64,000 nucleotides of DNA from assembly GCA_934778215.1 (NCBI GenBank), contig CAKVOE010000002.1:105829-169828 (forward strand). Direction: 5' to 3'. This document shows positions 35,877 through 36,856 of the stretch, one piece after another. The stretch is from an uncultured Clostridia bacterium (GTDB lineage Bacteria; Bacillota; Clostridia; Christensenellales; UBA1242). A program made the translations under genes and the position numbers. The notes beneath the pieces are model-generated. The model was not told the origin of the DNA. It ran no database searches and saw only the letters and a program-made list of their open reading frames with translations. Each line of letters starts with the position of its first letter. Position 1 is the stretch's first letter.

Positions 35877-36032
35877 TCATTTCTTAAAAATCAAAATAGC
35901 CTTTGCGCCAGGTGTGGTTGTTGCAGAAACTAAAGCAAAACCATCTTTTTCCATCTCGTTACACCTATCTTCTATTTTCTTTGCCATTTTATTTGCTACG
36001 GGCGTGTAGCCTATTAATTCAGTTTTATACAT
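35877..36032 (-). CDS. Unannotated 51-aa ORF (DUF4177-like small protein)
   Basis: Hand-translated as MYKTELIGYTPVANKMAKKIEDRCNEMEKDGFALVSATTTPGAKAILIFKK. RBS AAGGAG 8 nt upstream. Below the track size cut-off. Confidence 0.4.
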   Translation of the reverse strand: MYKTELIGYTPVANKMAKKIEDRCNEMEKDGFALVSATTTPGAKAILIFKK

Positions 36033-36202
36033 TTATTTTACTCCTTTGTTATTAAATACTTTTGGTTGTTGCCAATTAAGTAAATAATCAAAAAACTTGC
36101 GACTTTATAAATATAGTATAACATAAAGTTTTTTAATTTGTATATTAATTTTTAAGCAAGATAAACAAATAATATTACTATTCGTTTCTTCTTAACATCT
36201 TT

Positions 36203-36565
36203 AACCATTAAAAAATATCCAAGGATAAATTCCTTGGATATTGTTACTCCCCCACCTTATGCCGAACATTACTGTTCGGCAATTTCTAATGCAGGGGCTT
36301 TTGCCCACCGAGCAAATAGCCCCTTGCACGCCGGAAGGCGGCGGTTTGAACCCTACACAAATCTAACAATTAAAAAATATCCAAGGATAAAATCTTTGGA
36401 TTTTGTTACTCCCCCACCTTATGCCGAACATTACTGTTCGGCAATTTTTAATGCAGGGGCTTTTGCCCACCGGGCAAATAGCCCCTTGCAGGCCGGAAGG
36501 TGGCGGTTTGAACCCTACACAAATCTAACAATTAAAAAATATCCAAGGATAAATTCCTTGGATAT
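36203..36565. repeat. Tandem repeat, about 2.2 copies of a 162-bp unit. Each unit is a GC-rich three-way-junction element plus a terminator-like hairpin (tRNA-linked repeat).
   Basis: The hairpin ATATCCAAGGA-taaa-TTCCTTGGATAT starts at 36215, 36377 (degenerate) and 36539, giving a period of 162. The cores at 36242-36376 and 36404-36538 differ at 4 positions. Confidence 0.9.
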
Positions 36566-36571
36566 TTTTTA

Positions 36572-36648
36572 TGGTTGGGATTAGTGGACTCGAACCACCG
36601 ACCCCCACCTTATCAGGGTGGTGCTCTAACCATCTGAGCTAAATCCCA
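36572..36648 (-). tRNA. tRNA-Ile (anticodon GAT)
   Basis: The rev-comp reads TGGGATTTAGCTCAGATGGTTAGAGCACCACCCTGATAAGGTGGGGGTCGGTGGTTCGAGTCCACTAATCCCAACCA. Confidence 0.95.
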
Positions 36649-36688: not shown

Positions 36689-36765
36689 TGGTGGAGATAA
36701 TCGGATTCGAACCGATGACCCCCTGCTTGCAAGGCAGGTGCTCTAGCCAACTGAGCTATACCCCC
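36689..36765 (-). tRNA. tRNA-Ala (anticodon TGC)
   Basis: The rev-comp reads GGGGGTATAGCTCAGTTGGCTAGAGCACCTGCCTTGCAAGCAGGGGGTCATCGGTTCGAATCCGATTATCTCCACCA. The G3:U70 identity pair is present. Confidence 0.95.
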
Positions 36766-36827
36766 ATAATGCCAAAACGAGTGTGGCGGAAATATTCTAA
36801 TGTGTCTTATTTGTTTTCGACTTAATT

Positions 36828-36856
36828 ATATTACCACCTTTTACTCGTCTTGTCAA
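36828..36856 (-). promoter_or_regulatory. Sigma-A promoter of the tRNA-Ala/tRNA-Ile unit
   Basis: Minus strand: TTGACA (36856..36851), 17 nt, TAATAT (36833..36828). Confidence 0.6.

Follow-up and report, generated by a model that had tools for sequence, protein, structure and literature searches.

The 64-kb window, by which we mean the whole stretch of DNA analyzed here, contains a tRNA-Ala/tRNA-Ile operon on its minus strand, and an array of tandem repeats begins at the first base past tRNA-Ile on the same strand as this gene (Table 1). The locus is chromosomal: the genes for LeuRS, an HD-domain protein, and GluRS are found upstream on the same strand, and the array is followed by a 51-aa ORF and then by a lipoprotein-like gene. 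A GluRS identical to that of the window was found on metagenome-assembled contigs, and its nearest named homologues belong to Clostridia and Christensenellales MAGs. The promoter-like site of the tRNA operon was the sole strong one identified upstream of the array on the minus strand, and the promoter scan did not identify any promoter-like site inside the units. On the strand of the tRNAs, the tRNA operon is followed by a first hairpin and then by two units, each with a hairpin behind it. The first-pass annotation of this DNA had described an alternation of terminators and small-RNA genes; this layout stands, but support for the reading as independent small-RNA genes is only partial: the units present no internal promoter-like site, no homologue was found outside the species, and no pair of the fold changes on both sides.

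Table 1. Positions of the tRNA genes, hairpins, and repeat units within the window.
Feature	Position	Strand	Basis or remark
Promoter-like site of the tRNA-Ala/tRNA-Ile operon (TTGACA, 17 nt, TAATAT, with TG)	36828..36856	-	Promoter scan
tRNA-Ala(UGC)	36689..36765	-	ARAGORN; Rfam tRNA, 71.9 bits
tRNA-Ile(GAU)	36572..36648	-	ARAGORN, Rfam; positions 35-46 (AUAAGGUGGGGG) = window 36602-36613, source of the 12-mer
T1, terminator hairpin of the tRNA operon	36539..36565	-	Hairpin repeat and palindrome search
Unit 2, 5' segment H' (AAUUGUUAGAUUUGUGUAGGGUUCAAA)	36507..36533	-	Starts as inverted tRNA 3' end and A-run
Unit 2, 5' strand of closing helix (CCGCCACCUU)	36497..36506	-	9/10 complementary to the tRNA-Ile fragment
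Unit 2, hairpin HP1	36452..36490	-	Fold; 17 bp, two bulges
Unit 2, hairpin HP2 (UGCCGAACA-GUAA-UGUUCGGCA)	36422..36443	-	
Unit 2, tRNA-Ile fragment h (AUAAGGUGGGGG, tRNA positions 35-46)	36411..36422	-	3' strand of closing helix
T2, hairpin copy	36377..36403	-	Three mismatches, which weaken the minus-strand stem
Unit 1, 5' segment H'	36345..36371	-	
Unit 1, 5' strand of closing helix (CCGCCGCCUU)	36335..36344	-	A-to-G change yields a G-U pair
Unit 1, hairpin HP1	36290..36328	-	C-to-U change yields a U-G pair
Unit 1, hairpin HP2	36260..36281	-	
Unit 1, tRNA-Ile fragment h	36249..36260	-	
T3, last hairpin	36215..36241	-	Followed by U6
51-aa ORF	35877..36032	-	Outside the feature; anchor for the retrieval of strain variants

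Tandem Repeats Finder delimited the array to positions 36202-36571 with a period of 162, 2.3 copies, and 94% matches, which agrees with the tandem 162-bp units in about 2.2 copies described by the first-pass annotation. The two full units are identical at 154 of 162 positions (~95%), and their eight differences are divided equally between the core and the hairpin or flank. The core differences (unit 1/unit 2) are found at 36286/36448, 36311/36473, 36329/36491, and 36339/36501; their number is the one originally reported, and the third is moved by one base from 36328/36490. As also reported, the cores are GC-rich (0.57-0.58, compared to 0.34 over the whole window and 0.28 in the adjoining spacer). 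Read on the tRNA strand, each unit is composed of a segment that opens by continuing the terminator palindrome in inverted form and ends in CCGCCACCUU, two GC-rich hairpins, AUAAGGUGGGGG, and a short filler with a copy of the terminator hairpin of the operon.

The hairpin ATATCCAAGGATAAATTCCTTGGATAT was expected to recur at 36215, 36377, and 36539. We found it exactly at the first and the last of these positions and with three mismatches at 36377, which is far above chance (shuffle expectation of 0). On the minus strand, each unit is followed by an 11-12-bp stem and U6, as defines an intrinsic terminator. The terminator scan reported the hairpin copy at 36242-36214, and two of the mismatches of T2 fall within its stem. 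The hairpin at 36539 presents a T-run on both strands and the U-run is therefore not confined to the minus strand as had been stated. The terminators of the other tRNAs within the window are ordinary. Finally, the 12-mer CCCCCACCTTAT occurs at 36249, 36411, and 36602, with a shuffle expectation of 0.19.

Both strands of the units were predicted to fold into a closing helix and two hairpins, which is the fold initially proposed. With the terminator hairpins included, the fold of the minus strand reached -83.8 kcal/mol (z = -8.2) and that of the plus strand -84.9 kcal/mol (z = -9.5). The closing helix of this three-way junction is formed by the tRNA-Ile fragment paired with an inverted copy of itself. 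Copy 1 had been thought to be weakened and copy 2 to be the maintained one. Two of the core differences (36339/36501 and 36311/36473) are mismatches on the plus strand only and G-U wobbles on the minus strand, and the fold of unit 1 is therefore about as stable as the fold of unit 2 (-55.5 vs -56.4 kcal/mol for each unit alone). The unit-1 variants of the window are also common in other strains, and this earlier distinction between the two copies is not retained.

We used the 51-aa ORF to look up the locus in other strains and obtained ten loci from independent assemblies, nine of which present a countable array (the contig of the window, L202, is among them). The array was found to be variable across strains, with one to four copies of a unit of 162-171 bp. 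Two of the nine countable loci possess a single copy (L203 and L207) and five possess two copies (L202, L206, L208, L209, and L210), and the last two present at least two copies (L211) and four copies (L205). The remaining locus (L204) belongs to the same type as the sister-species locus L004 described below and presents the tRNA piece and the hairpin only, with no canonical unit. The array is not an assembly artefact since independent assemblies present distinct variants and 1, 2, or 4 copies. Two types of units were distinguished by their ends: type-one units end in AUAAGGUGGGGG-AGUAACAA and are 162 nt long, and type-two units end in AUAAGGUGGGG-UCGG(U/A)AAAAAGAAGUAGAAC and are 168-171 nt long. 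Type-two units retain five more tRNA bases, i.e., tRNA-Ile positions 35-51 (~16 nt with one deletion).

At two of these loci (L205 and L208), what comes before the array is not a tRNA gene but an element end, made of non-tRNA DNA, that is joined at C32 to the 3' part of tRNA-Ile. The resulting fragment extends from C32 to CCA (CUGAUAAGG...CCA) and is accompanied by the hairpin, and the cargo of both loci sits upstream of it. Integration into tRNA genes is established to leave a regenerated gene and a displaced fragment (PMC4383910, PMC9897764) and, judged from its sequence, the L205/L208 junction is a classical displaced tRNA fragment of this kind. A similar element end was found joined to a fragment of a type-two unit at L004, a locus of a sister species (GluRS 88%) that has T3 and the DNA beyond T3 in common with the window; the element ends of L205/L208 and L004 are 84% identical over ~190 nt. 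In addition, L004 possesses a 3.2-kb insert between 21-bp direct repeats (ATAAGGTGGGGTCGGTAAAAA), and these repeats are copies of the tRNA piece of the unit. This insert is bounded by a unit fragment, and such fragments serve as insertion points. The inserted DNA is polymorphic: the 3.2-kb insert is present in L004 and L204, a different cargo is present in L205 and L208, and the window presents neither of them.

The displaced fragment of L205/L208 and the insertion in L004 identify the shared 12-mer as the start of an attachment-site-like fragment of tRNA-Ile. The 12-mer had been correctly described as common to the units and tRNA-Ile, and it is this 3' fragment, not an incidental word, that they share. 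The copy of the tRNA 3' part in direct orientation is 12 nt long in the window and ~16 nt long in type-two units, and the fragment starts in the anticodon loop in all cases, at A35 in the units and in the related species L129 (see below) and at C32 in L205, L208, and L004. Several phage contigs (e.g., L152, L155, and L156) also present tRNA 3' halves that start from C34/A35 after non-tRNA DNA, which we read as putative attP sites. We saw no integrase gene either within the window or across the 2.5-10 kb available for L004, L205, and L208, and only ~100 nt of non-coding DNA per unit separate the tRNA copies of the window. The cargo proteins of L004, L205, and L208 did not yield any informative match to Pfam, NCBIfam, PHROG, or PADLOC.

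The layout of the window was found in L129 and L004 with different core sequences. In L129 (GluRS 76% identical), tRNA-Ile is followed by a hairpin/terminator, an inverted tRNA copy, four hairpins, and a stretch from AUAAGG through CCA that matches the tRNA-Ile of its own genome at 40 of 43 aligned positions. In contrast to these loci, L008 (GluRS 79%) presented no inverted copy, no palindrome, and no such layout. The layout is clearer in L129, where the inverted copy covers 38 nt of the tRNA 3' half (p = 0.0007 beyond the helix), and L004 possesses a palindrome with 50-nt arms that consists of the tRNA 3' half and the terminator. In the window, T1 lies at the center of an imperfect palindrome that is longer than the hairpin (arms 36518-36549 / 36555-36586) and extends into tRNA-Ile at its 3' end; the 32-nt arms are 78% complementary. 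The inverted copy of the window is significant at its two ends only and not beyond 10 nt, and no significant resemblance was obtained for the middle of H' in unit 2, to the tRNA or to any other sequence (p = 0.2 past the helix in the window). Based on our own reading of the arms of L004, 7 of the 12 differences of its inverted copy are GC-to-AT changes, a pattern that looks like neutral decay. An inverted copy is not predicted by simple integration. It may have been generated by template switching that extended the terminator palindrome or, alternatively, it may belong to a recombination site that folds.

We built a covariance model from 11 unit variants, which recovered every unit of the species at 95-122 bits. 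Outside the array, the model had no match in the 64-kb window, and it had none in L129, L004, or L008 either. The homology of the cores of the window and L129 was not significant when unanchored (p = 0.1-0.3) and was not detected by the covariance model; the two share only an anchored block, namely CCCTGCA, 7-8 nt, TTGCCRAAC..GTTYGGC, and then ATAAGG. A BLAST search of the array against phage and plasmid collections returned no match, and pattern scans of viral contigs, species-representative genomes, and JGI metagenomes returned chance matches only, as judged by BLAST and by eye. The pattern of HP2 plus AUAAGG was absent from the species-representative genomes (one per species). For dispersed palindromic repeats (REP/BIME, MITE), which are defined by many copies over a genome, the observations cover the 64-kb window, with no copy outside the array, and these species-representative genomes. 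Within the reach of these searches, the core sequence is thus restricted to a single species. The first-pass annotation had named a lack of conservation or covariation in relatives as a finding that would speak against its reading, and beyond the species this is largely what was observed.

We aligned the 12 distinct unit variants and scored them against the structure of the three-way junction. No pair was changed on both sides across these variants; shuffle controls were uninformative since the unit variants are too close to each other. In the three core helices, the six sites that vary by a transition all retain pairing as G-U when read on the tRNA strand, with no pair broken, which has a chance probability of ~0.016 when both outcomes are assumed to be equally likely. 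The terminator hairpins presented one change that preserves pairing and three that break it, which argues against a simple mutation bias. These changes in the core stems hint at a constraint on the fold of the tRNA strand. The stem of HP1 is lengthened in two variants by a C and a G inserted on opposite sides, and L209 presents the one-sided intermediate. The retention of wobble pairs and the matched insertion in HP1 are hints of selection acting on a folded RNA or single strand. The loop of HP2 is variable (GUAA, GCAA, or AUGC) and is inverted in L211, which is a DNA-level event, and the variants L203 and L205_1899 carry stem-breaking transversions. Based on our own rough count from the variant alignment, the stems vary about as frequently as the loops.

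The search of Rfam at gathering thresholds matched tRNAs only, in agreement with the initial view that the fold is no riboswitch or housekeeping RNA. The RtT family was not matched even at E <= 10. The E-value mode of cmscan returned FuFi-1 (RF02986) as its sole hit of note, on the minus strand with 31.0 bits and E = 8e-5. This family comprises orphan structured RNAs from Firmicutes and Fusobacteria (Weinberg et al. 2017, PMC5737381), and the units might be read as a diverged member of it. Indeed, a short hairpin module (AAAUUGCNGAAC...NGCAUAAG) followed by AUAAG, the closing helix, and a 3' terminator is found in both, including in the true FuFi-1 of a viral/phage contig (L026, 124.6 bits). 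However, the score is half of the gathering threshold of 59.6, and the alignment crosses two units with a 97-nt insertion and misses the second junction domain. The module of L129 did not match FuFi-1 at E <= 1, and L026 shares nothing else with the units and presents no tRNA nearby. We consider it highly improbable that the unit is a FuFi-1 RNA; the resemblance is treated as superficial, and membership in FuFi-1 and RtT is rejected.

Several other identities were considered and set aside. A 116-aa ORF over the units is regarded as spurious; a protein search with it found nothing. The unit is not a tRNA-Ile pseudogene with an insert: its 5' region presents no significant similarity to the 5' half of the tRNA. 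The idea that the unit is a direct copy of the entire operon that has since decayed received marginal support from chained alignments, with p = 0.015-0.07 for the window and no signal for L129. The match of HP1 to the 5' half of tRNA-Ala ranked in the top 1% among 203 control tRNAs. We rely on neither observation. 5S rRNA, SRP RNA, domain V of group II introns, attC, and the ends of IS200/IS605 were also considered and set aside for want of a match.

With slightly more confidence than doubt, we interpret the array as tRNA-linked repeats in the 3' trailer of the tRNA-Ala/tRNA-Ile operon that were built on displaced fragments of tRNA-Ile. The anatomy of the units, the variation of their copy number, the displaced fragments, and the insertion bounded by a unit fragment in related strains are directly observed. 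Site-specific recombination in the anticodon loop of tRNA-Ile would duplicate the 3' part of the tRNA together with its terminator, and a short non-coding remnant would stay between the two copies of the tRNA 3' part. Unequal recombination between the ~44-bp repeats that contain the terminator, or between whole units, would alter the number of copies. The locus of the sister species indicates that these tRNA fragments still act as secondary attachment sites for an integrative element. Any RNA of the units would arise when transcription from the strong tRNA promoter reads through T1, each unit would contribute a back-up terminator, and the folded core may be left as a stable by-product. This interpretation is weakened by the composition of the core, which at 57% GC vs 34% fits old neutral debris poorly, and the absence of an integrase gene from the sequence searched is counted against it.

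The main rival is that the units are small-RNA genes whose three-way-junction RNA of ~100-135 nt would be released from the read-through transcript and act in trans, which is possible but rather unlikely in our view. A functional read-through RNA would be compatible with an origin from attachment sites, as for RrA/B/F of E. coli (PMC8144298), and would resemble these in its action; its closing helix would mimic the anticodon stem of tRNA-Ile. The E. coli repeats located after rRNA operons bind Hfq and CsrA (PMC8144298). Such an RNA would account for the strong fold and the GC-rich core, for the six of six wobble-preserving core transitions (vs one of four in the terminator hairpins), for the compensatory +C/+G insertion of HP1 with its one-sided intermediate in L209, and for the fact that at least one unit is kept at every strain locus showing the array. 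It is harder to reconcile with the absence of double-sided pair changes in 12 variants, the variable HP2 loop and its inversion in L211, and the stem-breaking transversions of L203 and L205_1899. Moreover, the covariance model of the core was blank on L129, L004, and L008, no homologue was identified in species-representative genomes, JGI metagenomes, viral contigs, or the phage and plasmid collections searched with BLAST, and the units lack an internal promoter and vary from 1 to 4 copies with no apparent constraint on their number. Alternatively, the unit might be a site of folded single-stranded DNA in which the pieces of tRNA-Ile pair and rebuild a duplex attachment site, capped by hairpins like the attC sites of integrons or the attP hairpin of the CTX phage, and used as a recombination substrate or decoy. 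The hairpin cluster of L129 between inverted and direct copies of the tRNA-Ile 3' part (p = 0.0007), the 50-nt arms of the L004 palindrome, and the use of a unit fragment as insertion point in L004 are in line with such a site, and wobble-type changes fit pairing within one strand of DNA. However, neither a recombinase nor a single-strand replicon is in evidence, the inverted copy of L004 decays mainly by GC-to-AT changes (7/12) as in neutral loss, and that of the window is not significant past 10 nt; we consider this alternative very unlikely. It is also conceivable, albeit with little probability, that the GC-rich three-way junction is a selected, lineage-specific decoy or landing pad, made of RNA or single-stranded DNA, that shows the anticodon stem and variable region of tRNA-Ile. 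It would divert or regulate the tRNA-Ile-specific integrase or another factor that binds the anticodon arm of tRNA-Ile and would thereby protect the essential tRNA gene. If this were true, tRNA-linked repeats in general, including those of E. coli, would be functional by-products of integrase targeting.

Tandem repeats linked to tRNA genes (TLRs) have been known in E. coli since 1978; their origin is without an accepted account and most are without an established function (PMC8144298). They comprise the tyrT-distal rtT repeats and the rrA/rrB/rrF repeats found after rRNA operons, the latter being transcribed through terminator read-through (PMC8144298). They occupy the trailers of tRNA and rRNA operons with 1-5 units per locus, and the end of the unit copies a part of the upstream gene (PMC8144298). 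The likeness to the tyrT repeats proposed by the first-pass annotation is therefore apt: in both cases, non-coding units are located on the same strand in the trailer of a tRNA/rRNA operon, between successive terminators, and they are found in tandem, with 1-5 copies per locus for TLRs and 1, 2, or 4 copies here. Several differences were observed, however. The piece copied here covers the anticodon loop, the stem, and the variable loop (tRNA positions 35-46/51), whereas it is the last 18-19 nt in E. coli, and an inverted copy that pairs with the tRNA piece is present here. The sequence and the fold of the units are unrelated to RtT, the host is a Clostridia-class gut bacterium, and these repeats are tied directly to integration events. 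The units lack the copy of the 3' end by which the E. coli TLR family is defined, and the resemblance appears to be one of array organization. A comparable TLR-like array is now described in a distant lineage of uncultured gut Clostridia, which provides a hypothesis for the origin of such arrays, namely that an attachment site and a terminator are duplicated and then undergo unequal recombination. It also calls for caution, as GC-rich and strongly folding units beside tRNA genes can resemble new RNA genes while being, at least in part, recombination scars.

The array further resembles the islands bounded by attachment sites in tRNA genes, in which a copy of the tRNA 3' part starting in the anticodon loop lies beside the intact gene, the presence of inserted DNA varies from strain to strain, and the fragment is used again for secondary insertion (PMC4383910, PMC9897764). 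The window differs from these islands, and from the remnants of cis-mobilizable-like elements, in that it presents ~100 nt of hairpin-rich non-coding DNA and no integrase; the fragment is shortened to 12-17 nt, the units are tandemly amplified with the terminator, and an inverted copy is present. The best-supported classification from these comparisons is that the array represents a variant that combines tRNA-linked repeats with the scars of attachment sites made of tRNA fragments, the variation across strains being what joins both kinds.

The inner part of HP1, one of the two hairpins of the repeat-unit core, was aligned to the 5′ half of the nearby tRNA-Ala, with which it agrees at 26 of 36 positions, and an equal score was reached by only 1% of 203 control tRNAs. 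This alignment suggests that the unit core may contain tRNA-derived debris. Nothing like this similarity was found in the core of the related-species locus L129.

The motif UCCGCCACAYUCGUUUUGGCA lies directly 5′ of tRNA-Ala. It is kept across several related species, and the spacer between tRNA-Ala and tRNA-Ile is not conserved. This motif can fold into a small GCCA/UGGC hairpin and is a candidate processing element or leader element. The tRNA-Ile(GAU) of L129 has the anticodon loop CAGAUAA, so that position 33, a nearly invariant U in tRNAs, is occupied by A; this may reflect genuine variation or a mistake in the assembly.

Coordinates of features at the tRNA loci and in viral contigs
Feature	Locus	Positions	Strand
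Motif 5′ of tRNA-Ala	window	36770-36792	minus
Motif 5′ of tRNA-Ala	L004	6770-6795	
Motif 5′ of tRNA-Ala	L129	2283-2310	
Motif 5′ of tRNA-Ala	L148	2912-2932	
Inner HP1	window	36290-36328, 36452-36490	
tRNA-Ile(GAU)	L129	2427-2503	
tRNA-Ile-locus insert	L004	7170-10300	
tRNA-Ile-locus insert	L208	1-1690	
tRNA-Ile-locus insert	L205	1-1345	
FuFi-1 RNA	L026	7292-7505	minus
isrK, C4 antisense RNA, type II hammerhead ribozyme	L019	4926-5106, 7184-7249	

The inserts at the tRNA-Ile locus of the sister species (L004) and of the strain loci L205 and L208 have in common a hairpin-rich right end of roughly 190 nt (84% identity). Their cargo differs: one has 139-aa and 720-aa proteins, and the other has proteins of 382, 89, and 55 aa. 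These proteins had no informative match in Pfam, NCBIfam, PHROG, or PADLOC, and no integrase was seen within the available insert sequence.

Known RNAs were also observed in viral contigs. A full-length FuFi-1 RNA (124.6 bits) is present in the IMG/VR contig L026, flanked by short ORFs and with no tRNA nearby. The unrelated contig L019, found via pattern scan, presents isrK and an adjoining C4 antisense RNA, as well as a type II hammerhead ribozyme that is incomplete at the contig end. Finally, six viral contigs (L152, L155, L156, L179, L197, and L201) carry tRNA 3′ halves beginning with CAUAAG and preceded by non-tRNA DNA. These halves look like attP sites of phages that target a CAU-anticodon tRNA and integrate in its anticodon loop.
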